A DNA stretch of 63,299 nucleotides, the filler included, from Rhabdomonas costata (lineage: Eukaryota), in assembly GCA_019059605.1 (NCBI GenBank). It is 50 parts of 50 records of this genome, joined end to end, with 100 filler letters (N's around TTAATTAATTAA, not from the genome) between each part and the next. Parts side by side here need not be neighbours in the genome. Positions count along the whole stretch, not along the records: positions 34,246 to 35,413 come from JAHMHO010025315.1; 49 more parts are not named here. One strand, 5' to 3'. The notes under the pieces are model-generated. The model worked only from the letters and a program-made list of their open reading frames with translations, searched no databases and had not been told where the DNA came from. The position numbers and the translations under genes were made by a program. Within the stretch, counting starts at the first letter, position 1. Each line of letters begins with the position of its first letter. Of this stretch, positions 4,358-61,502 are shown in pieces.

Positions 4358-5119
4358 GTGGCTGATCGCGTGCCCCTTTTCCCGAACGAGACCCTTGCTC
4401 GGGCTTTTTGGGGTGTGCGTGTGCCGCGAAGCCATTTTCTCATGGCGCTTTGCCTGTTGGCATGGAAATTGCTGTTTTCGTCGATTTTGCCATTACTGTT
4501 TTTGTCGGCGCTAGTGTCAATGGTGGGCTCGCTTTTTTCTACGTCTACAAGCGCGCAACTTCGAACAAGCTTCCACGCCGCTGTTACCCTGACTTCTGTT
4601 AGATAAGCGTGAGAGAACCCGTACAGCAAGGCATCTCACTATTCTTCCGCGGTCGAGGCATCATCACCATCATCACCACGCCACCGCCACCGCCACCTAC
4701 CACCATACCTGTTTTATTGCCTCAGTCACTTGCTCTGTCTTCACGCAACTACCCCCACCTTCAAGCTACCCCCACACACCTTTCGGACGCAAGGGCTTCA
4801 CGGAAGGTTGGAGATCCTGTTCTTCTGCTGATCCGAACGGCCAACCTCAATGTACATAGACCTGTAGACGTCTATGTGAGTCGGCGCAGCCAGTGGGGCG
4901 CGAGCCCATTGGTCAAGGCTGTCAACAGCTTACCTGCTGGGAAGTTGTGCTTTTCTGAGACGGAAACAAAAAANNNNNNNNNNNNNNNNNNNNNNNNNNN
5001 NNNNNNNNNNNNNNNNNTTAATTAATTAANNNNNNNNNNNNNNNNNNNNNNNNNNNNNNNNNNNNNNNNNNNNGTGTTTTTTGCAAGTGTACCGTCATCT
5101 TCTTTGACTTAGGGAACAG

Positions 5120-5865
5120 ACGTAGTGAGAGGCCCTCTTCATCTTCGAGGGGTTACTTGTCGGGCCCCTGCCGGGTCCCTCCCAACATGCTGAAGGGTCG
5201 CCCTCAGCGGCCTCCACTTCAGAGCAGGAGCGTAGCGAGTGAGCATGGAATATCAGCATTCTTTTTTTCCATTCAACATTTAGGAGGAACGAGCGCAGTG
5301 AGTAACGACCTGAGGCAGTGAGTAAACTGAGGAACGGAGCGTAGCGGAGTGACGATAACGAGGGGCCCCATGACCAGGAGCGTAGCGAATGGGCATGGGT
5401 ATCAGGCATATTTCTTCTTTCTTCCCCTTCTTGAGACATCACGAGCGTAGCGAGAGCGTCACCCGAAGGGTAGTTTTCTTCTTCAGGGGCCCCATGACCA
5501 TCAGGAAGTGGGGATAGGAGGATGACGCGTAGTGGCATCGACGACGTAAAGATGAAGGTGGAGCGAGGAATGCAGTGACGAGCGACAGGAAAAGTGGACA
5601 TTACGACCGAAGTGAGGAACGCAGTGACGAACGTAGTGAGAGCCGGGCCGGAGGCCTTTTTCATCTTCAAGGGTTACGTGTCGGGCCCCTGCCGGGTCCC
5701 TCCTCCCACTACAACATGATGGTCGCCCTCGGCGGGCTCCACTTCGGCCCTCTGTCTCACCTTGGGTCTCATGCGGCCTCAGCGTGGATGTCTCTTTCAT
5801 CCACCGAGGTGGGAGCGCAGCGACTGAGCGACCATCATACGTTGACACATCCCGAGCGTAGCGAA
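5120..5865 (+). repeat. GA-mismatch hairpin repeat family member with a diverged internal direct repeat (~5120-5220 vs ~5630-5745)
   Basis: Multiple GAGCGTAGCGA, GAACGCAGTGA and GAGCGCAGCGA units. TGTCGGGCCCCTGCCGGGTCCCTCC occurs twice. Blocks are shared with 35351-35403. Confidence 0.8.
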
Positions 5866-6108
5866 AGCGTGGCCGTGGGATTGGTATCTGGGTGTTGGGA
5901 TGTGAACGCGTCAGAATTCCGGGGCTGGGTGTTTGGGTTCATGCTGAGATGTGATGGTGGGTGTCTGGTATGCAGAGATGTTGGCGGGTATTTTGAGAGT
6001 TTCTGGGACCGGGGCTGTGGGTTGGGGTGAATGTAGCGATTGTGACCCACTTTGCGTTGACCTTCCAACTTCCAACAATTCACAAAAAAAGCTTTGTCAG
6101 GAACGCAC

Positions 6109-6206
6109 CACGGGTGTCTGAAAACCTCCTCGAGGGAGTACCGCCGGTCCGGGTCCACCACCAGGAGATGGCTGATGAGGTCTTGCAGCGGCGCAGAGAA
6201 GAACGG
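6109..6206 (-). CDS. Ser/Thr protein kinase exon (subdomain XI, CAMK/SNF1-like)
   Basis: tag|PFFSAPLQDLISHLLVVDPDRRYSLEEVFRHPW|gtgcgt, the typical DLIxxLLxxDPxxR...HPW motif. Confidence 0.85.
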
Positions 6207-9200
6207 CTACCCCCACCCAACCCCCCACCCACACCCAACACNNNNNNNNNNNNNNNNNNNNNNNNNNNNNNNNNNNNNNNNNNNNTTAATTAATTAANNN
6301 NNNNNNNNNNNNNNNNNNNNNNNNNNNNNNNNNNNNNNNNNTTGTTTTTGTCTTCCGTTGATGCCGCTCGAGCCAATGACTCTTTTCATTATTCTCTCTT
6401 TGCTTTCGAGAAGAAATACGGTGTTGCTTCGAGTGTCGGAGAAAGTATCAGACTTACCTCCTCCCTCTTTCTTCTCGCGCCTACCTCTTTTCCGAGATGT
6501 AATAATCCAGTGCAACTGACGCAGCCTGGGAAACATTGGAGAGTCTTGTCGTCTCCACATCCGGCGCAATACGGTGAGCCCTAGGATGCTTTCGGATGCA
6601 CCGCTGCGGATAGTTTGTACTATTTTAAGCGAACCCATTTCAATGTCCGTTGTAATGTCACATATCTGATTCAGTCTTTTGTACAACTTTGTTTGACAAA
6701 ATGCTGAACTTTGATTGACTCTTTTTACTCTACTTTCGTCATGGCGTGCTGCGGAGCGTTGTGGTTATGGGCTGGCAATTCCTTTTTCTTTAAATGTCTG
6801 CTCGAGGGTGTGGGTTCCTTGTGCTCGAGGGTGAGGGTTCCTTGTGTTTTAGGTGACTGTGATTTCTCCGGAACACCCCAGGTGGGTACCTCTGCCTCCT
6901 TTCTCGGCGAGTAAGTGGCTTCCATTCTTATTTGTTGCGCCTTTCTCAATTTGGATGAAGCTATTTTATATTTCTATTTCACTTGCCTTCTCCTGCAACA
7001 GCTTCCTGGGTTAGATAGAACAGCATGCCCTTTTTTGTGGTATTTGAGTTGTAAATTGGCATGGGGTGGAAGAAAATAGGGAACGTTTTGTCATTAATGA
7101 GGATTGCTTTTTGTTATTATGGGTTCTCTTGGAACCCATACATTGCATTCCACGTGGTTTTTGTTGTGCGATGTTCTGATCGTTCTTGCAATAAGAAGAT
7201 TCACGGCGAGACATGCATGCAACCGGGAAGGAGTCAAATTCTCCTTTTTCTTGTGTACCGCTGTAGAGTTTTGTATTCTTTCACAGCGGCTCCACAAAGC
7301 GCCCAAAGCTGTACACGGCGACGCAGGTCTTTAAGCTTCGGGCTCGTTTCTTTGTTTTCTGATTTTCCTCACTGTGTTGTTCCGGAAAACATGGAAATAG
7401 ACTACGCGGCGTCTTGTGGGAGCAGAAAGTCCCTATTTTCGTGCCCCCTAGCCCCAAACGGAAATCCGGACCGTGTATCGCCCTCTATTAAAGCCACTGA
7501 AACACACCCNNNNNNNNNNNNNNNNNNNNNNNNNNNNNNNNNNNNNNNNNNNNTTAATTAATTAANNNNNNNNNNNNNNNNNNNNNNNNNNNNNNNNNNN
7601 NNNNNNNNNGTGTTGGGGGTGTTTGGTGGGTGGGTGGACGGAGCTGAGTTGAGCTAGGCCAGCCGAGGGACGTGCGGGGAGGGGAACGCCTGCTCCGTAC
7701 AAGCGAGCAAAAATTGACTATCTGCATAATGGGAAGCAACTGTGGGACACGGGAGGCCTTCACATAGGGGTTCCGGTGAGAGGGGATTTGCGAAGATCCC
7801 ATCCCACGGGTCCGAATGCATTACCACCCCTCGCTACGTTACGCTCGCTTCGCTCAGCTCCGTTCTTCCACCCCCTCTCCTTCCCAAGAAAAAATCATAC
7901 TGACCCACTGCCCACACGAACATCACCCCCTGACCCACACATCAGACCACGAGCTGTAAACCAACTAACCCCATCAACCCCCAAAAATCAGATGCAGCCC
8001 ACAACCCAACCCCACTACCGACAGACCAACAGTTGTAGCACCAACAACCCGATGACGAATAGACGTAGTAACAACAGCACCACAAACCCCTCTACCAGCA
8101 GCCACACCAGATGCAAACACAGCCCGATGACCAAATCACGGACTGCGCACCCAGCGTACTAGACTTCCCCCTTCCCCCCAAGAGGTCGTCCCCGCCAATA
8201 ATAGTAATGTCATCAACGGTGGTTTCCATAGAATCTCCTCCCAGCAGAGGGGTGATCAACACCCCGAGAAACCAGGTTTAGGAGAACATTCGATAGCTCG
8301 CTAGAGGCGGAAAAAACGTCCACTAAAGCAATGCAGGTGCAGTGTTGTGGATGCGAGTGTGTGTTCGTTCGCTCCTAGCCGCTGGGAGAGTTCTGCTGTG
8401 ATCCTGCGTGATTATACAATTATGCAGTAGCTCCTCTTTTTACTGTAGAGAGTCTCACTCCAGTTCACGCACAAGAAGAGACCACAAAACCAGCGTCAGT
8501 GCGACCGAACCTGACCATGACTGAAGCACACATAGTATCAAACAAGCAACGAGGGTCATCCCAATTTTCCGACCATCCTCCTTCTCCTCAAAGTCGCCAC
8601 CTGAAGGCGGGAGACACCTCCTTCCCCATACCGGGGGTATCAATGTTGGACCCGATCTCATTGCAGCTTTCCAGCGTTGCTTGACCGGGGCTTTGTGCAC
8701 ACATCCGTGATGAGAGAGTCTATAAAACGTGATAGCCGATGCCTTGGCATGCACGAGTCTCTTGCCAACAACAAACANNNNNNNNNNNNNNNNNNNNNNN
8801 NNNNNNNNNNNNNNNNNNNNNTTAATTAATTAANNNNNNNNNNNNNNNNNNNNNNNNNNNNNNNNNNNNNNNNNNNNGGTGGTTTGTGGTGCATTCACCT
8901 ATTTACAAGAAAAAATAGCCCTCATGAAAGAACACAGCTGGGGCCCTGTGACAGGGCCTCGTTCGGGGTATTTTTTCTTGTAAATAGGTGAATGCACCAC
9001 GCACCAGCCACGCAGCGTTTCGGGAGGCCCGCTGCATAGATAGAACACCCCAATATAAACAGCAGATCTGATACGTGTTTGATTATTCGGTAGAGCTCTG
9101 ACATCCCGTGTTCTGCCCAACCCTCCTCAGGCAGGAACATTTCCCGACAAAGCAGCTGCATATTTAAACAATCGGAAATCACATGGAGCGCCTCTTCTTT

Positions 9201-13949: not shown

Positions 13950-14501
13950 GTACGGCATTCTCCGACATGAAGAACGCTCAACTCGGTCAGCCCCGAGGCC
14001 ATCTTACAGCAAGCCCATCTGCACGTGCCTGCACTGTATCCTTGGGCGCGGTGGTCACTGACGACCCATAGCTGGTTGTTTTGTCGCAATGTCGTCCTGC
14101 GGGGAGAGTGTGGCGTTCATCAGGGGAGCCCGCTTGGCCCGCTGCTCTTCTCCCTAGCCTTGCACAAGGGAATCACCGAGGTTGAAAGAGCGCTCGATGG
14201 TGAACCGCAAACCTGGATGGCTTGGTACCTGGATGACGGTACCATCTTTGGTTTACCGCTTTCAGTTCTCATCCGGTTGCTGCCCCTCCTCGAGATAGCA
14301 CTTTCACGATTGGGCCTCCAGCTGAACAAGCAGAAAACGCGTGTGGCTTCGGCGTGCACAGTGCGCGGATTGAGCGCCGTGAGGGTCGTCCAGATGCAGG
14401 AACCCGGTGCGGGCTTCAAAGTGCTTGGCGTGCCATTCGGATCTACAGAATTCATTCGCAACGAGCTCAGCAGGGTGCAAACCCGCGTCAACCGTTTTTG
14501 C
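13950..14501 (+). mobile_element. Non-LTR retrotransposon reverse transcriptase fragment, CRE/SLACS-like
   Basis: GVHQGSPLGPLLFSLAL, AWYLDDGTIFG, LGLQLNKQKT and FKVLGVPFGSTEFI correspond to RT motifs 4-7, in a form typical of the CRE clade. Confidence 0.9.
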
Positions 14502-14900
14502 AATCCCTCTCTCTCCCCTCCGCCGTCCGCGGTGCATTGACTCTTCAATCTCCTCTTGGAATACTCTGGCTGGACCTGGTCTCCTCTCCTTGCTCACTCA
14601 TACATTCAGTCTCTCCTTGAAACTCTCCAACGCATTCTCCCGACTATCTTTCGGTACATTAGCGACCTTCTTCTCTCACACGCTGATCCCTGCTTCCTTT
14701 TGCCCACACACTATGCTGCACTATGCTGCGCACCTCCTCCAGAGCGCTGGCTTCTTGCTGAACGAAAAGAGTTCTTTCACTCCCTCTACCAATATCATCT
14801 GGCTAGGCAAACTGATCGAATCCTCTCCCCTCCCTCTAATTTCCGATCCCTCTTCCACTCTCTCGAAACTGTTCTCTTCGCTGACAGCCCATTTTTCTCC
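14500..14900 (+). mobile_element. Decayed DIRS/TATE-like (tyrosine-recombinase retroelement) RT fragment, frameshifted
   Basis: Across frames: SWNTL/GWTWSPLLAH (LPFGWxWSP-like), FRYISDLLL (degenerate YIDD), LLQSAGFLLNEKSSFTPSTNIIWLGK. Confidence 0.7.
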
Positions 14901-15231
14901 GCCCTGTATCGCGTCTGCGCCTTCTCCGTGTTCTCGGCCTCTGTCAATGGCTCTCCCGTCCATCTTCTGAAGTGGCCAACTTTCTTGCCCCTCTTGATCA
15001 CCTTGTAAAGAGGAAAACGCTTCCTCGTTGCTTTCCTTTTCAACTTTGGCCTCCCTTGCTCAAGTGCTTTATCCTCGTGCACCTCCCTGCGTTGTTTACT
15101 TCTCCTCCACACACCACNNNNNNNNNNNNNNNNNNNNNNNNNNNNNNNNNNNNNNNNNNNNTTAATTAATTAANNNNNNNNNNNNNNNNNNNNNNNNNNN
15201 NNNNNNNNNNNNNNNNNGGGGGGGGGTTGGG

Positions 15232-15303
15232 TTAGGGTTAGGGTTAGGGTTAGGGTTAGGGTTAGGGTTAGGGTTAGGGTTAGGGTTAGGGTTAGGGTTA
15301 GGG
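15232..15303 (+). repeat. Telomeric repeat (TTAGGG)12
   Basis: 12 perfect TTAGGG units at the contig 5' end. Confidence 0.97.
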
Positions 15304-23169: not shown

Positions 23170-23837
23170 CACCGGGGATCACTACACCGTGGTGAGAACG
23201 GCTGTGGGCTCTAGCAAAGAGGCAGAAACGTAACACAGGGTACACACGTGGGCGTGGACGTTGTGGCCAGCAATCCAGGCAAGGGGCTTCAGGCCCAGCT
23301 CCTGGAGCTTGTTCTCCGAGACCAAGATCACCGCTGCAGCACCTGAAACCCACCCAGAACACGGAGAGCCACACGACAATTGGTGTTACTCTCCAAAACG
23401 CTCACTTCGCACGCAGCATACATGAAACAAGGACCCAACCAGCAAGCCCTAGACTACGAAGCCAACTGTACGGTTGTGCCATCAACACATTTGTCTGAAA
23501 CATAAAACTTCTCATTACCACTGAAGGCCCCGTGTTGTAGGAAGATGTGAATGTAGACCTCACCTTTGCTGGAAGGTACTTTACCGGGCTTTCTTCCCTG
23601 CTTCGAAAAAAGCCTGTGGCCCGCGGGCTTTCTTCTTCCCAAAAGCAGCAGCGGCAGCACACCATCGTTGATACTGCTGGCATTGGCCGCCGTGATGGTG
23701 CCGTTCTTCTGAAAGGCGGGCTTGAGCTGCGGGATCTTCTCCACCTTCAGCAGGCCAGGGCCCTCATCGGTGTCCACCACAACCTCCTTTCCCTTGATGC
23801 TCACCTTGACAGGGATGATCTCCTCCTTGAAAAGACC
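23170..23837 (-). CDS. Thiolase (acetyl-CoA C-acetyltransferase), exons 23837-23663 and 23342-23248, plus a possibly decayed exon 23210-23170
   Basis: FKEEIIPV...VDTDEGP...LKPAFQKNGTITAANASSINDG|AAAVILVSE...LGLKPLAWI, joined by a GT-AG intron. Confidence 0.92.
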
Positions 23838-24611
23838 CTGAGCAAAGAGCGCCACCGTGCCACCCACCCACCCTTTTCCCAGCTGTTGCGCTTCCTGGCA
23901 GCTAATTCATGTCAAATCGGCACTCTGCAGTGCTCCGTGTCCACTTCCATGCGCATCCTTTCACGGTGCCATGCAACAACCCCCCAAACACACCAACACN
24001 NNNNNNNNNNNNNNNNNNNNNNNNNNNNNNNNNNNNNNNNNNNTTAATTAATTAANNNNNNNNNNNNNNNNNNNNNNNNNNNNNNNNNNNNNNNNNNNNG
24101 GTGTTGTGTGATAAGACGCCCACAAGGACCCCAGAATGAGCGCTTTCCATTGTGTGCAGTGACCTATCCCGCCGGGCGATAATGACGGTTGACAGACACA
24201 CCCAACAAAGGGGGGTCGGTACGACATCTCGTGCGATAGCATCCACCTCATGTGCAATTTGAGATGGACGCGGTGGCACTTTTTGCTGCGCAGGACGGCC
24301 CATTTCATGTCAAACGTCAGAGCTGCAAAAGGGCAGCTGTTTTTAAAAACTTGACGTGCAGCGTAATTCATAAACCCTATGCAAGTCCAAGGCATGACTT
24401 TTTGCCTCATCACCTTTGGCATAGCTCCGTTTTCTGTTTTGGTGGCTCTGTTACTCCCATTTTTCTAATGAAACGTTGAATCTTTTTTTTCGTCGTTCGG
24501 CAATTGTTGACGAATACAGCACCCCCCCACCCGGTGTGATGCAGACACCCTTTGGCGATAGGGTTCGCATCTCCCGTGTCTCCTTGGACAGTTCTTTGTC
24601 CTTTGTCTTTG

Positions 24612-25267
24612 ATGTTTCGAACTTTGCCACTGTGGGTGTGTTTTGTGGTGGTGGTGGTGGCCTTCACGGGTGCCTTCACGGGAAGCTTGTGGGTAACCTT
24701 AAACTCCTCTGCCGTGTCCTCCATCGACGACCTCTCCGGTGTGATCCAGAGCACGGTGGTGAACGACCTCGAGCACCGGCTGCAGAGCGTGCTGGATGGA
24801 ATGATCCTTCTTCTGAACAGTTGGCGGGCCATTCCCGGGGTCGAGCACAGCACCCCCGCTGAAGTTTTCTCGTACACCTTCAATGTGATGAGCCTGACGC
24901 CTTCAGTGAGGGTTATGCTCTATGCGCGTCCTGATGGGGAGACCGTAGGTGGGGGCCGGACGTCCTCAGGGGGACTTTGCGTTAATTACCGTCCATCCTC
25001 CGAGCTGGGAACTCTGATCAACATGACCCTCTATAACTTCAACGGTTCTCTTGGGAATGCGTTCTACTCCACATTGTTTGACCCTCGTGTGCGGCCTTGG
25101 TACCATGAGGCGGTGGCTGCCCAAGGTCCCGTGTTTACTTACATGATTCGATCAGTTGTAGTCACTCAACAGAGCATTACCCTCTCCGCTGCGGTGTACC
25201 ACCCCAACCAGACGCTGGCCGCGGTGCTTGCCGTGCTGTACCCCTTCTCAGCACTTTCCAACCACCC
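24612..25267 (+). CDS. N-terminal TM plus extracellular Cache-like sensor domain, probably of a receptor-type cyclase; truncated by contig end
   Basis: TM helix (LWVCFVVVVVAFTGAFTGSLW), a long amphipathic helix, then the dCache signature FDPRVRPWYHEAVAAQGPVFT...ITLSAAVY...LAAVLAV. Confidence 0.8.
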
Positions 25268-30214: not shown

Positions 30215-30459
30215 GTGAGCTGGATAACCCCCTTTCCAGTGTGGCTCGTTCCAGGAGACGGCGGTGTTTGCGTACCCCCTCCCCTGGTTCCGTTCTATGA
30301 GCTTGAATTTCGCGGTGTCTTGAAAAATCTATGACACCANNNNNNNNNNNNNNNNNNNNNNNNNNNNNNNNNNNNNNNNNNNNTTAATTAATTAANNNNN
30401 NNNNNNNNNNNNNNNNNNNNNNNNNNNNNNNNNNNNNNNGTGTTGGGTGTGGTTGGTGG

Positions 30460-31351
30460 TTGGTGGACAAGGTGATCGGGGACCGCGTGCTGTGCCTGTG
30501 GAACGTGCCGCGGCGGTGCGCCCGAGCGGAGTACTTCGCGGTGAAGGCGGGTCTGGCGATGGCGGCGCGGTGGCAGGGCCACCTGGAGGCCCTGCGCTCC
30601 CCGGCCGCGGGAGACCGCGTGACTCCGCCGAAGCTTTGTGTGGGCATTGCCAGCTCCATGGTCTTCTTCGGCAACGTGGGGAGTGACACCATGAAGGTAG
30701 GGCGGCTGGGCGATTGATCGTTTGTCTTTGGATGTGTGCTGGATACTTGTACTTCATCTGTCGTACAGAGGATGTCCATCAGGGCATGTGGGGGGCCACC
30801 AGGTGCCATTGTGTGTGTGTGCGCGAGAGTACTCGAGCTTTTTAAGTGATCTGAAGCATCTGGAGTTGTTTGTCTTTGAGCCGAATTTCTTCTCCCTCTT
30901 CTGGATGTCCCGCCTTCTCCGCCTTGACCCAAACTGCACAGGTCTTCACTGTGGTGGGGGAGGCCCTGGAGTACGCCGTGGCCCTGCAGCGGGCGGGCTG
31001 CAAGGCTCACGGAGTGGCTGTGCTTGTGACGGAGGCCGTGGCGAAGCAGGTGCCCTTGCTTTTCTTTCCGATTCTTTCGCTGCAAAACAGGGAAATTGAT
31101 TTGCCTTCTAATTCTTATCGAGATAATGTTCTTTCTCTCATCTCTTGTTTTCTCACGTTGTTCCGTTGTTCCGTCTTCTCTTTCCTCTCGCCGAATTCGT
31201 GTGCACGTGCGCACCTTTAGGTGGATTGCTACATGAAGTGTGTTCCGTGCACGGTGCTCCGGCTGGCCTACCGCAGCCCGGTGAAGGTGCTGCCATGCCT
31301 TCAGCCGCTGGAGGAGTCCGCCGGGGGAATCTCCGAGAACCAAGACATGGA
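30460..31351 (+). CDS. Class III nucleotide cyclase-like domain (degenerate), exons ~30460-30696, 30942-31049, 31221-~31351
   Basis: VDKVIGDRVLCLWN...LCVGIASSMVFFGNVGSDTMK|VFTVVGEALEYAVALQ...VLVTEAVAKQ|V, with two phase-0 GT-AG introns. Confidence 0.85.
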
Positions 31352-33969: not shown

Positions 33970-34429
33970 GTCAGTGATCAGGTTGTTGTTTTGGCTGCAT
34001 CCCCGCTCTCCCCTGCTCCCCGCAGACCCCTCTTTTCCTATCCTCGCTCTTATTGGCGATGACTCATCTCCGCCGCCGGGGGTCGAAACGCCGGTCACAT
34101 CAGGAGACCAGCCGGCTGGTCAGCCCAGTGTTCCCCCCCCCCCACNNNNNNNNNNNNNNNNNNNNNNNNNNNNNNNNNNNNNNNNNNNNTTAATTAATTA
34201 ANNNNNNNNNNNNNNNNNNNNNNNNNNNNNNNNNNNNNNNNNNNNTTCATTGTGGGCGGATGTATGGGGGTGTCGATGTCACACAGGGAAGGTGGGACCA
34301 GTGCGGTGACGCGGTGTGGCACATTGACTGGGAACATGATAGAAAGATCTTGGATTAGAGTGATGTAGCATGATCGGTTGTCGGTAGCATGATCAACTGT
34401 CAAGGAGTCGGAGTCTTGCATCTGGGTCA

Positions 34430-35405
34430 CGAAGGGATGTCGAGGCATTGAGGCATCGAGGCATCCCGTAGTAGGAAGGGCATCTGCGATAGGTTTACCC
34501 TTTACCCCTTACACCCATACCTTACACACAGCGCGTAGCGGTGGAGGAGGCAGTATGCCAACACGTATACAACAGGAGGCATTCGAGGGACCGAGAATGC
34601 CGACATGAAGAAGGAACGAACGAGCTGATGCGAGTGAGTGACAGGAGTACAGAATACTCAGTAGCAGGAGGGAACATGAGCGGAGCGATTGTGACCGACA
34701 GAGTGAACAGGAGACATGAACGCAGTGAATGTCGAGTGTGAACCGTGATCGAAAGAACGTATGCAGAGGAGACATGAAACACGAACGCAGTGAGAGTTGA
34801 ATGTCGACGTCAGGAGGAACAAAGCGCAGCGAAGTGACGACCAAGGAGCAAGGAACGAGGAACGCAGTGACAAGTGACGTAGCGACCAAAAGGAACGAAG
34901 ACACGAACGAGCTGATGCGAGTGAGAGTCGGAGTGACAGAATACCCATTATGCAGAGGAACATGAGACATGAACGCAGTGAATGTCGATTGTGACGTCGG
35001 AGGAACATGAGCGAGTGCAACGAGCGATTGTGACGACAAAGGAACGAAGGAGCGTAGCGACTGAGAGACAGAATACCCACTATAAACAAGGAGGAACATG
35101 AGCGTAGCGATTGTGACGACCTAGGAACGAGGAAGGAGCGTAGCGACGACCGAGTGACAGAATACTGAATACTCCCTTGATGTCTTCGAGGTCTCGGAAC
35201 CGGGTAGCGGTGGAGAGACCGAGGCATCACTCGTAGGAGGAAGGATGCGAGGGACCGAGCATCCTGACGACCAGCAGATACTCGTCGTCACTTCACCACC
35301 ATAAGGGACAGGAGCGCAGCATCGACCTACAGCATAAACCCTTCTCTGAGTTCAGCATTTAGGAGGAGATGACGACCGAAGGGAGGCATCGACGACATCA
35401 AAGCA
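34430..35405 (+). repeat. Array of nested GA-mismatch/GNA-triloop hairpin modules (non-coding, purine-skewed)
   Basis: Recurring GAACGCAGTGA, GAGCGTAGCGA, GAACGAGCTGATGCGAGTGA and ACAGAATAC modules with complementary spacers. Confidence 0.85.
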
Positions 35406-35643
35406 TCTTTTACNNNNNNNNNNNNNNNNNNNNNNNNNNNNNNNNNNNNNNNNNNNNTTAATTAATTAANNNNNNNNNNNNNNNNNNNNNNNNNNNNNNN
35501 NNNNNNNNNNNNNTGTTTTGGTTTCATTCTGAGCCCCTCTAAAAACGAAACGAAAAGGAAAACTACTGTACCCTCTCCAGCCACGATACAACCCAGGGTT
35601 GGAAATATAGGAAAGGGGATCAATGGAGGAGAGGGCGGGGTGC

Positions 35644-55989: not shown

Positions 55990-58339
55990 GCAGGCCAAAA
56001 ATAAAAGCTGAAGCACGGAGAAAAGTGGGCAGGCTGGCAACGCGCCTGCGTGCATCACCCTCAGAGCGTTTCGGAGATGCAGTAGCATGACCCCTGGGGT
56101 ACTGGGGCGGAGCTGCTGCGGTGGAGCGGTAGCGGTAGCCGCAGAGGTGGCATGAGTCGTAGTACTGAGAAGGAAGCTCGCCGCGGCTGCCCATGCGCAG
56201 GCACAGCCCTGCAGCACTGCCAGCCTCAACCGATCCCCGACGGGCGTTCCCGCGTGGGACCTGTGAAACGGACCCAGGGAAGGAGGAAACTCTGTTCTCG
56301 TCAGACTGCAGTTCGCGGCATGACGGTAGAGGCTTGGATACTTGGCTGGAGATAAGCTGAAGCTGACAAAAAAGCCCACGGTAAGGTAAACGACAAATGC
56401 TGTGTCATTTCATCAAGCAGACAATCCCAATCCAAAGCAATGCCAACCGTACAGCCACCCCAAAAGTCGCGGACGCAGGCCCACCTCAGCACTCTAGCCA
56501 GAGTAAACTGCCAGCCAATGTGCAGGTCTGCCTCCTCCACGGTCACAGGCTCCGCAAGGCTCTCCACGGGGGCCCCATCCCTGGGCCAGCCGCTGGCCAA
56601 CCTCTGGGCACTCCATTGCTGCAGGGAGGTCAGCGTACCCTGGCTGGACAGCTGCTGCACGGCAGTCCACGCACGGCAGCCGTCACTCGGATCTTACAGA
56701 AACAAGCAACCAACTCAGCGGGAGGGGAAGAGGGGCGCCGAAAAAAGTGGCTTCACCATTCGCACAAACCCACAAACCGACCCGCCCACACCCACAAACA
56801 CCTGATCCAAAAAAAGGCACATGCAGCCACACAAAAAAACGAAGGGGCAATTCCACGTCCACCGCAACACAACGAGACTTACACACATGTCTGGCAATGA
56901 CCCCGGAGCAACCTTTCCAACTATACTCGTTTCGTACCTTTGCACGTCCCTCCCCCCCAACCTANNNNNNNNNNNNNNNNNNNNNNNNNNNNNNNNNNNN
57001 NNNNNNNNTTAATTAATTAANNNNNNNNNNNNNNNNNNNNNNNNNNNNNNNNNNNNNNNNNNNNTTGTGTTGTGACTCCGCAGCATTTCGCTTTCCCGCT
57101 ACTGTTCCGTGTGATAACGCTGCTTCATGCGAAGGAAATTTTTGGATAACTCAAGCAATATTGTTTTGCTCGCTTTGCAGAAAAAAAAATAGTCAATGCT
57201 ATATCGAGGGCGAAGGGAACGTAACGAGGGAAGGGTGGGTGTCGAAAAGTTGAGGGAAGTTGCCTCGATGAAGTAGGATGTGCGCAATGTGTTGCAGATC
57301 GGTGGGGAAGTAGCTGGGTTTAGAAAAGGGAGAGGGTGAATGGGTCTCATAGTGTGTAGGCGTAAGATCAATTGGCAGCGTCTGTCGGGAGAACTCCCAG
57401 CATTCCTGGAAGAACGTCAAATCTTCACCATCTGTGTGCCCGCCTTAGGATGTCTCCAGGGGCCCTAGCATCGGAGCTCATTGGCAGCGAGGGTGCCGTT
57501 GCCGGCGTGGCCCTGGCCGTCTCTGCCGCCATTTTTGGTGGTTCGTACCTACCCCTCCCACCCTATTGCAACGAGTCCACTCTGCGAGTGCAAAATCGAA
57601 AGCTCGAATGCAAAGCGCTTTTGAATCTTTCCTTTAAGGTGATCATAGTTTGCTAATAGTAAAGGCTGAAATGGATGCCAAAATGGTCGGCGACGACTCG
57701 TTCAATTCTCACTTTTTAAACGCCGAGTAATTTTAACCGAATTTGACATGTGTACGTTATGTTTTTTCATTCCTCACCGAGAAGTGCATACTAAAATCCA
57801 TGCTGCTTGACATTCCGCTTGAAAACAAATGAAGATCGCTGTGATGAGCCAAAGGGAGCCAGCTCTGTGTTTTGGGAGGACCTCCCTCTTCTCTGTGGCT
57901 CAGCGATGAAGGTCATGCGACTGGGCTTACGGTGCGTCCTGAGCCATCCGCATTGGCTCTCGGAGGCCCAGGGCCACCCCGGAACCACCCGCCGGGGCCT
58001 GCGGGCCACCCTGCTACTCGCCGTGCTGCGGCTTGCCTTCCGTCCCTGGTACACTCCACTGCTGCACAGGTCTGTGTGGGTGAGACGGTCAGCTTAGATG
58101 TAGATGATAAGGAGTGTTGCCTTTGAGAGGTGGTATGGAATGGGCTGCTGTGAACACCGAAAATCACACATCCGCTTCAGCCCACCTTCCCCACCCCAGT
58201 TCACTTTTGCTGTTCTCCCGCCGCAAAAAGTNNNNNNNNNNNNNNNNNNNNNNNNNNNNNNNNNNNNNNNNNNNNTTAATTAATTAANNNNNNNNNNNNN
58301 NNNNNNNNNNNNNNNNNNNNNNNNNNNNNNNGGGGGGTT

Positions 58340-58850
58340 GGCTCCAGTGGTGATGATTCGGGTGGTGAGGAGAACAGTGATCATGACACAGGAAGTGGAG
58401 CCCAATCCGCGACGGAGGAAGTCGACGAGGATGATAAAAATGACGATAAAAGCGAGGGTGATGCCGAAAGTGGCAGCGGAAGCGAAGCGAAGTCTGACTC
58501 CGGCGCCGCGGCGTCGGACTCCGAAGCGAAGCCGGAAGCTGCTTCCGAGGTTTCTTCTGGCTCTTCTGCTTCTGCGGAAAAGGACGATGACGTCGACGTG
58601 GACGCCGCCTGTGAGGAAGACAGGGTGGAGGATAGCAATCAGAGCGAGGGGGACGCTGCCTCGTCTGAAACAGCAGAGGACCGAGCCGGGGTGGACGCTG
58701 CTGAACCCTCAAGAGGCCCGAAGAAGAAAAAGAAGAGCGTTGGGAGGTGCAAGCGAAGGAGGAAGGGCCGGGCGCAGGATGCCGCCCAGGAGGCTGTGGC
58801 GGAGGGAAAGGCCCCAGCTCGCCGTCACGCCACGCGCAGAAAGCGGAGGC
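58340..58850 (+). CDS. Acidic D/E/S-rich low-complexity protein with basic NLS-like tract, partial
   Basis: Open frame GDDSGGEENSDHD...EEVDEDDKNDDKSEGDAES...PKKKKKSVGRCKRRRK. Confidence 0.65.
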
Positions 58851-59282
58851 GCACGTGCCGGGATGGGATATCGAACTAAGCCTGCACATCTTGGCCTTAT
58901 GGTCAGAGCTTTCTGGTTTGACCATTACCTACTTCTCTGGCCTAACAGGAACCAAGCAGGTATTTCGCAGTTGTCTTTCGGATGCGCCGTGGGAAGGTGT
59001 CCTCATATATACCTCTTTTTCTTCCTGGATCCTAGTCCCGCCCGCAACTTCTAGGCACTGCCTTGTCGCTTTCTGCTCCTACCCTCTTCTTGATGGGTGG
59101 TCAATTCTGAACAGTGATGGCAACCCCCCTCAGGAGGTGGTCATTCCGTTCTGAATTCAAGACGGAACACCCCCAAGTCGCTCACTGTTGAAAACACCTT
59201 TGCTGCTCACCGCGAAGGTGAGCGCTATTTTGACTTGACCTTTCTTTCCCACGCAAACGCCAGCGTTTAGGTTCTGTATTTC

Positions 59283-59494
59283 TTTTGTCTTTGCCATTGA
59301 TGATCTCGATTGTTTTGGAAATTGGGAGTACAGCCAATTAGAGCCTCTCATGGCTCCCCTGAATCCGCGCTGCGGTTCCATGGTGCGGGCGGTGGGGAAG
59401 GCCGCTGGGCTGAATCAGGGGAGCCATGAGAGGCTCTAATTGGCTGTACTCCCAATTTCCAAAACAATCGAGATCATCAATGACAAAGACAAAA
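59283..59494. repeat. 80-bp inverted repeat (1 mismatch), 52-bp spacer, at contig end
   Basis: 59283-59362 is the reverse complement of 59415-59494. Confidence 0.93.
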
Positions 59495-61502
59495 CAAANN
59501 NNNNNNNNNNNNNNNNNNNNNNNNNNNNNNNNNNNNNNNNNNTTAATTAATTAANNNNNNNNNNNNNNNNNNNNNNNNNNNNNNNNNNNNNNNNNNNNGT
59601 GGGGGAATAGGCAGCTAAGGCTAAGCACTTGCATTTTAAGTTCGGCGCTAAAAGTGTCCGACCCTATGAACCCCTATAAATACACATTGCAGAAAGGGCG
59701 AGAAGGGGGCGAGCGGGTTACCCGTGGCATGGTGCCGAAGGACTGCTGGGTAGTGATGGTCACCAGATGGAATTGTGATGCTACTTCGGGGCGGCGAATC
59801 CTCTTCTGCATTTCTGTAGGTGCGCTAGTTACGGACTATTGCCTGTTTTTAGTGGGGACGCAGGACTCTGCCCAAGTACCGAAAAGCACCGAAAAGAATT
59901 CAGAAAGGCACGGTGTCGATGGCGAGAACCGCACCTTGGAAGCCGCCTTGGGTGCTGGGGCCTTCTTTGCCTTCGGTTTCGCGTCAGCTTCGGCCGCCGC
60001 AGATCCAAGGGCGGTGTCAGGCTGCGAAAGGCAAAATAAAAAAGAGTAGGCAATCGACCCTGCGCACCGGAATTACAGCAGCATCCTGTGCCGAATCTGT
60101 CCAATAGAAAAAAAAAAGCGTCGTGAAGTGCAATGAAACGGAAAAAGCACTCAGTTGAAAACCGTTCAGATCAAGGACAAAGCTAAATCGAAGGCGGTTG
60201 TTCCGCCATAGGCAAGAAAAGTTATCAAGGGTGGCGAGGTGAGAAACTGGTCAGCTCACGATGCACGTTGAAGAAGACGAAGGCTGCAACAAAGCGCGGA
60301 ACCTGTGGGGGGAGGATGCGTCGGCGCTTCTTAGCAGCTGAGCTGTCAGCGGAGGGAGCAGACGGTGCAGAGGGCGCAGAGGTTGTTGGCACCGCCTCAG
60401 CCGAGGGCGCGCCTGAAGTAGGGTTGGTTGGTTCCAGGGAGGCTTTTGATTTCCGTTTGAGTTGCCCAAGTTTGGAGAGAAGGCCGGCTTATTATGCTCA
60501 CGTGAATGATGAAACAGCAATTTTTTGCCTGGAAAGTGAAGAACTGTCCGTAACCCCCAAGAGCAAGCCCGAGTACGTAAAAACGCGAACGTGTCAGTGC
60601 ACTTGGGGGCAACAGAAAGGTAGGGATTACACGCGACCACTACAATTGAAACGACTCTTCACCTCAAATCGTGCAGAAAGAAGAAACGAAACAGAAGGAG
60701 AGATGTGCGGCGAGCTAAAAGCCTATGATTAAAGCATACCAAAAACAACCAAACACACCCACCACNNNNNNNNNNNNNNNNNNNNNNNNNNNNNNNNNNN
60801 NNNNNNNNNTTAATTAATTAANNNNNNNNNNNNNNNNNNNNNNNNNNNNNNNNNNNNNNNNNNNNTTGTTTTTGGTTCTTAAACTTTTTATATTGGCAAG
60901 TGTTGCATCCGCACCAAGGCAAGAAAAATAAAGGTTCTGTGAGCAAACGATGCAGGTATCGTTGTAAAGCGGTGATTTTTGAAGAACAATAATACCGAAA
61001 AATGAGGTCGTTTGCCTGTGAATTCAATAGGTTGTTTGTTTTCCTGTTATTCTAGTAGGTTTGAGCATGTTTTGCTTCAGGATTCTGGTTGTCCAAATGA
61101 AAATTTCCATGGCGATATGGCAAGATGCTTTCAAGTCAAGTTACCAGGCCCATATAGGCCCTTCCCCTTGTATTCCATCTCCCATTGGAATGGGAGGTGG
61201 AAACAAAGCCGATAAACTTTCAAAATCGACACGCCTCTCAGCCCACCTTTTATGGCTACGGACTTTTGATGCCCTTCCTCTCTATTCAGGCCAACGGATG
61301 AATATTTGTCCCCTTTCCCACGAAAGCCCTTTTCGGTGATGATTATCTTTCCTTTCACTGGGGAACGACCAGGTTCCGAAGGAAACAACAAGTTGCCTTC
61401 GGCACCACACCACAACCCCACAACCCAGAACGATAAGGGGGTTCACCAACTACTTCACGTGACCCACAAGAGTGCACCCAAAGTGCACGTACGACAAAGC
61501 AC

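Follow-up and report, generated by a model that had tools for sequence, protein, structure and literature searches.

The assembly of Rhabdomonas costata (GCA_019059605.1) contains a contig with an array of hairpins whose stems alternate Watson-Crick steps with G.A mismatches. This stand-alone, unplaced contig of 1168 nt occupies positions 34246-35413 of the window, the 63,299-nt stretch of joined assembly pieces that was analyzed, and has N linkers on both sides. The structured array spans 34575-35271 (~0.7 kb) and holds at least 12 modules in which the purine-rich plus strand is able to fold into a hairpin. The hairpin pattern is beyond chance, it is specific to one strand and one repeat family, and its stems are kept by compensatory changes. 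The array is tentatively read as a multi-copy REP- or satellite-like repeat that is selected for its single-strand fold, a reading to which we give somewhat less than an even chance. It is ranked first because the REP hairpin is the nearest worked-out analogy. A sequence-only reading of the same DNA had placed the array at 34430-35405; an array is present there, but its structured part is limited to 34575-35271.

In each module Watson-Crick steps of 2-7 bp are separated by tandem 5'-GA-3'/5'-GA-3' mismatches or by a 3x3 GGA/GGA loop, with a GNA triloop or a tetraloop as the cap. The eight strings quoted in the sequence-only reading are found exactly at 34614-34641, 34711-34735, 34964-34988, 35003-35033, 35046-35064, 35190-35220, 34579-34600 and 35243-35264.

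Hairpins in the region 34560-35275 were counted with an ungapped finder that accepts Watson-Crick pairs and tandem 5'GA/5'GA steps. Eight hairpins score at least 15, compared to a mean of 0.50 in dinucleotide shuffles (0/500 reach 8), and five score at least 20, compared to a mean of 0.03 (0/500). A stricter null keeps all 123 GA dinucleotides in place and permutes only the spacer words between them. The 1000 shuffles of this kind have a mean of 0.80 and a maximum of 4 hairpins; 0/1000 reach 8 and 0/1000 reach 5, which is the number of independent hairpin families once duplicates are merged. The spacers are thus more complementary than in GA-rich shuffles, as the sequence-only reading had expected. 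It had also expected that palindrome finders would miss the structure, and this is the case: an ordinary inverted-repeat search of the array returns 0 pairs, and Watson-Crick pairs alone give no excess (4-5 hairpins seen, 4.6-7.6 expected). The other contigs of the window serve as a natural control. Nests with at least 4 GA positions and at least 4 Watson-Crick pairs number 8 on the plus strand of the target contig, 2 on the plus strand of the contig at 5074-6241 and 0 on the other 98 contig-strands.

The choice of the 11-mer GA-NN-GNA-NN-GA was blind to complementarity. Both NN pairs are Watson-Crick in 10/10 of these 11-mers in the target contig, in 7/11 in contig 5074-6241 (9/11 with G.T) and in 3/35 elsewhere. 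The complementary pairs in the target cores are GC/GC, AC/GT, GT/AC and CC/GG. Across 21 family copies 70.8% of cells pair, compared to 55.0% in shuffles (0/500) and at most 45.8% with the partners slid. Pair 7-13 of these copies, next to the loop-closing pair, is GC in 10, AU in 6, CG in 1, GU in 1 and other in 2, and the pair just outside the GA step is CG in 7, GC in 6, UA in 1 and other in 6. The stems of two copies of one hairpin, A1 and A2, differ at 3/7 pairs; all three have changed on both sides, are still Watson-Crick and surround an identical centre. The covariation that had been proposed for these stems and for the GC/GC, AC/GT and GT/AC cores is therefore borne out. The direction is clear: covariation falls on the steps between the GA steps, and the GA steps themselves do not vary. 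Invariant non-canonical steps together with covarying Watson-Crick steps are the signature expected if the mismatches belong to a functional fold.

The array is bracketed by a module of ~75 nt, made of the conserved box GTAGCGGTGGAG and hairpin A, which is repeated 664-669 nt apart. All features of the array given here are on the plus strand. The box has a left copy at 34535-34546 and a right copy at 35204-35215. Hairpin A1 (34575-34604) reads G-GA-GGCATTC-GA-G-[GGAC]-C-GA-GAATGCC-GA-C, with 9 Watson-Crick pairs and 4 G.A positions, and its minimum free energy under the RNA model (-11.5 kcal/mol) is equalled by 2/300 shuffles. Hairpin A2 (35236-35271) is the A1 copy with the three compensatory pair changes and has 10 Watson-Crick pairs and 6 G.A positions. 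The A1/A2 centre CGAGGGACCGAG is invariant and is itself C-GA-G[GGAC]C-GA-G. Hairpin F (35190-35220), GGTCTC-GGA-ACCG-[GGTAG]-CGGT-GGA-GAGACC, has a 3x3 GGA/GGA internal loop between two Watson-Crick stems. Its minimum free energy is -16.1 (RNA) and -7.7 (DNA) kcal/mol, and 1/300 shuffles is as low in each case.

The modules between the brackets are built from a few frames. Hairpin B1 (34613-34642), G-GA-AC-GA-AC-GA-GC-[TGAT]-GC-GA-GT-GA-GT-GA-C, has 7 Watson-Crick pairs and 6 G.A positions, and B2 (34904-34925) is a copy of it with 80% identity and a decayed outer layer. Hairpin C1 (34669-34699) has the frame GA-ACAT-GA ... GA-TTGT-GA with the mini-hairpin GC-GGA-GC within, and C2 (35093-35119), 96% identical to C1, encloses GC-GTA-GC in the same type of frame. 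Hairpin D1 (34711-34735) is GA-GACAT-GA-AC-[GCA]-GT-GA-ATGTC-GA. D2 (34769-34808) adds to the D hairpin an extra layer AACAC / GAGTT with one mismatch, and its minimum free energy fold is the three-layer nest. In D3 (34957-34993) the D hairpin lies inside a C-type frame (GA-ACAT-GA ... GA-TTGT-GA), and in hairpin E (35003-35033) a C-type frame encloses GA-GC-GA-GT-[GCA]-AC-GA-GC-GA. Hairpin G (35045-35065) is C-GA-AG-GA-GC-[GTA]-GC-GA-CT-GA-G. There are also two solo cores, GAACGCAGTGA at 34860-34870 and GAGCGTAGCGA at 35136-35146. One constant frame carries different tips across modules, which suggests growth or exchange at the hairpin tip.

The exact GCGNAGC heptamer is part of the cores GAGCGTAGCGA, GAGCGGAGCGA and GAGCGCAGCGA; it occurs 7 times on the plus strand and 0 times on the minus strand. 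Other triloop variants keep the C-G closing pair (ACGCAGT, CCGAAGG), and 9/10 of the GA-NN-GNA-NN-GA cores in the target contig are closed by C-G. The Y-GA-R context, which favours sheared pairs, is found for 23/36 GA steps inside nests compared to 41/123 for all GA.

Two other motifs recur around the hairpins. One is a linker motif with ACAGAATAC, of which four copies lie between hairpin groups, at 34637-34664, 34924-34951, 35056-35083 and 35145-35172. The string AGGAGG(N)AACATGA recurs just 5' of C- and E-type hairpins (34666-34680, 34999-35011, 35086-35102, or similar). It looks like a Shine-Dalgarno sequence with an ATG, and the open reading frames (ORFs) after it have 8-54 aa and nothing in common.

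Under RNA nearest-neighbour (Turner) parameters the nest is the minimum-energy fold in 12/12 modules, and the plus strand is more stable than its reverse complement in 12/12. The 716-nt plus strand folds at -184.4 kcal/mol with a z-score of -1.56, compared to -140.1 kcal/mol and a z-score of +2.47 for the complement. Individual modules lie mostly between -2.4 and -7.7 kcal/mol, and the z-score is beyond -2 only for A1, A2, D1 and F. The sequence-only reading held that the structure can form only on this strand. The strand preference is confirmed in all 12 modules under the RNA parameters, but it is not exclusive, since the complement can also form the purely Watson-Crick stems A1, A2 and F.

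The chemistry cited in the sequence-only reading is in print. GCGNAGC mini-hairpins are described as extraordinarily stable; GCGAAGC melts at 76.5 C, which conventional models cannot account for, and GCGNAGC and CCGAAGG mini-hairpins are found at the G4 origin, ssiA and the N4 early promoters (PMC13037366). The C-G-closed GNA triloop is reported as the most stable form in DNA (PMC13037366, PMC3201870), and tandem GA-AG steps are reported to have very large stacking (PMC8163305).

The purine-rich strand could also be transcribed. The array would then be a structured non-coding RNA or part of an untranslated region, with tandem-GA hairpins like those of the bacterial RNA motif GA-cis (RF02987), and this RNA would act in protein binding, stability or processing. 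The Turner energetics above agree with this, there are G.T(U) intermediates between GC and AT forms, and GA-cis is the only curated family with this hairpin. However, Rfam returns 0 matches in the contig at E <= 10, GA-cis included, so a known RNA family is rejected, and there are 0 matches at the gathering score across the whole window. The loops are mostly GNA triloops of the classic DNA mini-hairpin and not GNRA tetraloops, and most modules are weak. A role in RNA is therefore rather unlikely. On the nature of the folding strand itself, the C-G-closed GNA triloops and exact GCGNAGC heptamers favour DNA, while the RNA-model energetics and the GA-cis precedent favour RNA; from the sequence features we lean slightly to DNA.

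A second, more decayed copy of the family lies on the plus strand at 5216-5870, in contig 5074-6241. It has 11 cores and two multilayer nests (5559-5587 and 5612-5632, plus strand). This contig shares 12 12-mers with the target, all on the plus strand, whereas any other contig shares at most 2. Its cores are more often wobble-paired or mismatched than those of the target, which is consistent with decay. Direct repeats of ~95 nt, 521-525 nt apart, bracket its hairpin-rich part, so that long-period direct repeats bracket the array in both family contigs (664-669 nt and 521-525 nt). A third contig has a possible short solo cluster on the minus strand at 7800-7860, GAGCGAAGCGA followed by GCGTAACG and TAGCGAGG. 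Its membership is uncertain, and it matches the model of the bacterial unit described below at E = 2 only. The family members are therefore 2, perhaps 3, of the 50 window contigs. GA dinucleotides make up 14.0% of the target contig compared to 3.5-8.8% in the 49 other contigs, and its purine content is 63%. The observed/expected CpG ratio of the target contig, 1.09, is the highest of the 50 contigs (median 0.76), so decay of the CG-rich cores does not follow the background rate.

The array does not appear to encode a protein. Two minus-strand ORFs, 203 and 209 aa long, give no Pfam match and 0 homologues among 1.84 billion representatives, and coding on this strand is rejected. The two overlapping minus-strand frames are open only because T and C are rare on the plus strand. 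There is no codon periodicity in the array: the period-3 power is 1.48x the mean, and the core spacings share no frame. The small plus-strand ORFs behind AGGAGG-AAC-ATG (8-54 aa) have no common frame or product and are rejected as genes. K-turn and box C/D readings are also rejected, as the hairpins lack both a 3-nt bulge and C/D boxes. A small nucleolar RNA match in contig 5074-6241 (E 9.5) is at chance level.

The sequence-only reading had offered a structural satellite as one option. A repeat family does fit the at least 12 hairpins over ~700 nt and the decayed copy, but a short-unit satellite does not. Tandem Repeats Finder (TRF; minimum score 30) detects no tandem array in the core, and its three small arrays are all at 34365-34512. 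The array has no dominant short period. A simple satellite is rejected on this basis.

The sequence-only reading had also suggested a function at a single-stranded DNA (ssDNA) stage, such as a priming or origin signal or the terminus of a mobile or viral element. In its wider form this explanation takes the hairpins for a signal of single-strand initiation, an origin or a promoter, or for the hairpin ends of an ssDNA virus, plasmid or transposon. The fold is strand-specific, and the mini-hairpins reported at the G4 origin, ssiA and the N4 early promoters (PMC13037366) are of the same type. However, no Rep, HUH, primase or recognizable ORF is found in the 1168-nt contig, which is too short to exclude linkage, and no HUH domain is found among the 79 window ORFs scanned, which come from unrelated contig fragments. 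There is no similarity to phage (50,697 records) or plasmid (72,556 records) DNA. Known signals of this kind use one to three hairpins, whereas the array has at least 12 over 700 nt. The decayed second copy lies in a different sequence context, and the ends of the target contig are not hairpin termini. An origin or terminus function is therefore not supported and is very unlikely.

The hairpin has a counterpart in prokaryotes. The degenerate pattern ACATGARCGNAGYGAWTGT, taken from the C and D hairpins, gives at least 130 matches in at least 120 loci of bacterial and archaeal genome contigs. This number is meaningless by itself because ~500 matches are expected by chance in that much DNA (own arithmetic), and some matches plainly arise from coding sequence by coincidence, among them a CobW-like NDMSEVN motif and the start of MinD. 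The content of the matches is more informative. Among the 130 matches listed, the stem extends outward by at least 2 Watson-Crick pairs in 62 (~8 expected), the W position is A, which gives the full ACAT/ATGT stem, in 115, and the R/Y pair is GC in 83, AT in 23, GT in 16 and AC in 8. Judged by these features, most of the listed matches are not random.

A unit of ~70 nt is common to Gallionellaceae, Sideroxydans, Casimicrobiaceae, Rhodocyclales, Thiobacillus and others among the matches listed. Its order is GGC-GNA-GGC, TAACAT-GA-GC-GNA-GC-GA-ATGTTA, a GCGAAGC-type second hairpin and GCC-GNA-GCC. The tip of the second hairpin is often expanded into GC-GA-GC...GC-GA-GC nests, and the betaproteobacterial unit has two hairpins with 3x3 GNA/GNA loops. 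In 33 bacterial copies 97.0% of cells pair, compared to at most 35.7% in slid controls, and 7 pairs have changed on both sides compared to 2.0 in shuffles (0/500). The copies are intergenic, several per genome and sometimes tandem, as in L004 with a 60-nt period. Example loci are L012:1466-1535(-), L004:1466-1629(+), L010, L071 and L115. A crude ORF test finds no fixed orientation of the copies to flanking ORFs, which counts against the RNA alternative. Other phyla among the matches listed have the same core with different complementary outer stems. The ACAT-GA-RC-GNA-GY-GA-ATGT family is apparently an undescribed covarying repeat family in prokaryotes. It is not in Rfam 15, save for GA-cis in two Clostridia-type loci; searches of the plasmid and phage collections with the betaproteobacterial form gave no match, and no paper matching the hairpin sequence strings was found in the literature. 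A tRNA gene lies beside the hairpin in 6/8 loci checked (L080:1429-1519, L107:229-319, L034, L064, L045, L029), and in L080 and L107 the hairpin begins at the last base of the tRNA; the loci were chosen on hinting flanks or an Rfam match, so this is not a frequency.

The covariance model R1 was built from the bacterial ~70-nt unit. In the window it matches only the hairpin of 19-21 nt (model positions 16-36, hairpin A of the model). The top 8 window matches are all on the plus strand of the two family contigs. C1 is matched at E 0.0097, and D1, D3 and C2 are matched as well. The single full-length alignment in the window has poorly matched flanks. Homology of the whole unit is therefore not supported, since the model matches the hairpin and not the two-hairpin unit. 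A search with the pattern of the conserved box and hairpin-A centre found nothing in the bacterial and archaeal genome contigs. The array and the bacterial family have the hairpin module in common, but homology of the elements is not shown.

The make-up of the window bears on two further explanations. The window is 50 pieces of 1165-1175 nt each, ordered by size and unrelated to one another. They are joined by linkers of 44N + TTAATTAATTAA + 44N, and TTAATTAATTAA is seen 49x at a spacing of ~1268 nt. The position of two pieces side by side has no biological meaning because the pieces are unrelated contigs joined by linkers. The flanks of the target contig (34146-34245 and 35414-35513) are such linkers, so it has no neighbouring genes there. 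A G/T-only stretch starts 28/50 contigs and an A/C-only stretch ends 32/50 (median 10 nt; for example 7610-7637, 6209-6241 and 30440-30467). These stretches look like untrimmed degenerate amplification adaptors. Similar runs occur internally, for example at 24631-24660, 5926-5939 and 6016-6029, and suggest chimeric joins. There is also a 97-nt inverted repeat at 59279-59498, 94% complementary with a 26-nt spacer, which reaches the end of contig 58332-59498 and could be a natural fold-back or an amplification chimera. Because of the end tags, the internal tag-like runs and this foldback, the library is probably amplified and chimera-prone. The pieces are probably of amplicon size and in part chimeric, and more than one organism could have contributed to them. 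Since the contigs look like amplified fragments, the host of the array contig is uncertain as well.

These observations raise the possibility that the array has no selected function and is a product of slippage-type growth of GANN tetranucleotide repeats (GAGC/GCGA self-nest) or an amplification or assembly artefact. The GA-to-GA spacing does peak at 4 nt (35/122 intervals), and (GAGC)n-type runs intrinsically form GA nests and are present in the tips of the bacterial hairpin B. The tags, internal runs and foldback contig end are further points in favour, as is the presence of the array in only one contig. However, most arms are not self-complementary words (AC vs GT, GACAT vs ATGTC), and single-unit slippage cannot make them for this reason. 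The shuffles that keep the GA steps and spacers never reach the observed nests, and the core has no tandem array by TRF. The array itself is free of tag-like G/T or A/C runs, and ordinary bacterial assemblies contain a covarying family of this same hairpin. An origin by neutral or technical processes is very improbable because of the shuffle result, the compensatory changes between copies and the bacterial counterpart.

The contig could instead come from an associated prokaryote, with the array as a BIME-like cluster of its REP-type hairpins. The contigs look like separately amplified fragments of possibly mixed origin, and intergenic repeats with this type of hairpin are widespread among prokaryotes, sometimes in tandem. 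A lead-in of the AGG..AACATGA type precedes the hairpins in both the bacterial loci and the array. However, the array itself is not returned from the bacterial and archaeal contigs, where only the 19-mer is found among the matches listed, and model R1 matches the hairpin and not the unit. A stretch of 1.17 kb with no ORF is unusual for a prokaryote, and contig 5074-6241 contains polypyrimidine and low-complexity tracts like the surrounding eukaryote-type contigs. A prokaryotic source is unlikely.

The REP- or satellite-like reading would account for the design as follows. The array would be the core of one copy of a multi-copy, non-coding and strongly strand-asymmetric repeat family. When the purine-rich strand is unwound, each module would stack into a compact hairpin, and the pyrimidine-rich complement would keep only plain stems. 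A fold of the single purine strand is the simplest reason for the design, since a double-stranded dyad site puts TC, and not GA, opposite GA. The hairpin may be the selected unit, read in single-stranded form by a structure-specific factor, by analogy with REP/BIME hairpins. These are bound as ssDNA by the HUH-type TnpAREP and require their conserved mismatches, and a similar recognition could apply here. The array would then be a proliferated repeat and not the origin or terminus of an ssDNA replicon.

Several points weigh against this reading. The evidence base is a single contig of 1168 nt plus its decayed relative. Duplication links the modules, and the counts therefore make them seem more independent than they are; the distinct cores number 11 and the independent families of hairpins ~5. 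The analysis found no enzyme, target-site duplication or element boundary. The whole-strand z-score under the RNA model is only -1.56, and 2/20 shuffles are as low. Standard DNA parameters give the 716-nt plus strand -69.9 kcal/mol and a z-score of +0.63, and the nests are not predicted; this null result is expected because these parameters give sheared G.A pairs and GNA loops no credit. The fold rests on published oligonucleotide work and not on calculation here. The match of R1 is circular, since a window-derived pattern had been used to collect the bacterial loci. Adaptor-like tags and likely chimeras are present in the assembly, and a technical contribution is possible.

A broader proposal takes the G.A-zippered hairpin, with its Watson-Crick steps, tandem sheared G.A and GNA cap and with ACAT-GA-RC-GNA-GY-GA-ATGT as its archetype, for a structural module of repetitive or mobile DNA that has no name so far and spans domains of life. 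Structure-specific enzymes of one conserved class would recognize its single-stranded form. The module would occur solo or in tandem between genes of Betaproteobacteria, Planctomycetota, Bacteroidota, candidate phyla radiation (CPR) bacteria and archaea, and would have proliferated here into arrays whose tips grow or are exchanged within constant frames. The module may be general because a pattern from this contig led to a large covarying prokaryotic family, but the full proposal is speculative and we give it only a small chance. To our knowledge, natural cases with sequence-readable selection for sheared G.A pairs or GNA mini-hairpins are few, and oligonucleotide studies are many. Such elements are probably under-counted in genomes because palindrome finders and DNA folding parameters miss them. 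The prokaryotic family offers a tractable bacterial system for finding the binding partner of the hairpin.

Other contigs of the window look eukaryotic, with gene fragments, intron-like gaps and a TTAGGG-like contig end. The latter is at 15218-15245, where the contig opens on a run of G and continues with GGGTTAGGGTTAGGGTT, a telomere-like repeat of the TTAGGG type. The gene fragments include a reverse transcriptase (RVT_1) at 13971-14540 on the plus strand, LRR_6 repeats at 1505-2383 on the minus strand and a thiolase N-terminal domain at 23457-23906 on the minus strand. The dCache_1 sensor of a histidine kinase is at 24661-25265 on the plus strand; its identity to EukProt entries is 53%, and the start of its ORF is a translated tag-like run. 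A histidine-phosphatase exon is followed by an intron-like gap in another window contig.

The array can be compared to several known systems. The G strand of the Drosophila dodeca-satellite is a purine-rich fold-back satellite. The dodeca-satellite and the hairpin centre GGGACCGAG have 9 nt in common, a resemblance at chance level (probability ~0.1, own arithmetic) that is given no weight. Human satellite III (ATGGA)n resembles the array in that it has one purine-rich strand with a proposed sheared G.A fold and is described as non-coding and multi-copy (PMC11014236). Fold-back satellites are built from short head-to-tail units in which self-pairing is automatic, whereas the array uses distinct complementary words and has covarying stems.

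The GA-cis motif is the comparable system in RNA. In the Rfam alignment its hairpin 1 accommodates ACAUGA-ACGAAGU-GAAUGU, and its hairpin 2, C-GA-GC-GAAA-GC-GA-G, is a GA nest. However, GA-cis is a defined two-hairpin motif of ~88 nt and not an array. The two matches to it among the bacterial loci are L065:1487-1574(+) with 66.2 bits and L053:1536-1634(-) with 34.8 bits. The Rfam consensus draws two GA steps as pairs, and the L065 and L053 sequences break them (non-canonical). Weinberg et al. describe ssDNA and RNA motifs as hard to tell apart bioinformatically (PMC5737381).

The REP, BIME and REPIN elements are also short imperfect palindromes, with high copy numbers and frequent clustering, and their arrays and solo copies are similarly arranged. 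REP hairpins are bound as ssDNA by TnpAREP, and activity is reported to be lost when the mismatches are restored to a regular stem (PMC8266576). Unlike REP, where this is usually GTAG, the array has no conserved 5' tetranucleotide at a fixed distance; in the array GTAG occurs only inside some loops (GCGTAGC), where the middle base is variable and the T of GCGTAGC is replaced in GCA, GGA and GAA. The REP mismatches are a single bulge, whereas those of the array are periodic tandem G.A steps. The context also differs from REP in being eukaryote-like, and no associated HUH gene is found in the window ORFs.

The DNA mini-hairpin GCGNAGC of Hirao and co-workers (PMC13037366) shares the exact heptamer and the GNA triloop with the array. 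The natural examples given in that source are single hairpins at origins or promoters, whereas in the array the mini-hairpin is only the tip of multilayer G.A-extended stems that are repeated many times and covary. The prokaryotic ACAT-GA family is also comparable in design. Its outer stem is fully Watson-Crick, whereas the C-type frames of the array have T.T or G.G beside the GA step. The 19-nt architecture is identical, with tandem GA and a GNA triloop whose middle base is free. Both show covariation between GC and AT at the same pair, both have 3x3 GNA/GNA loops like that of hairpin F, and both carry variable tips in constant frames.

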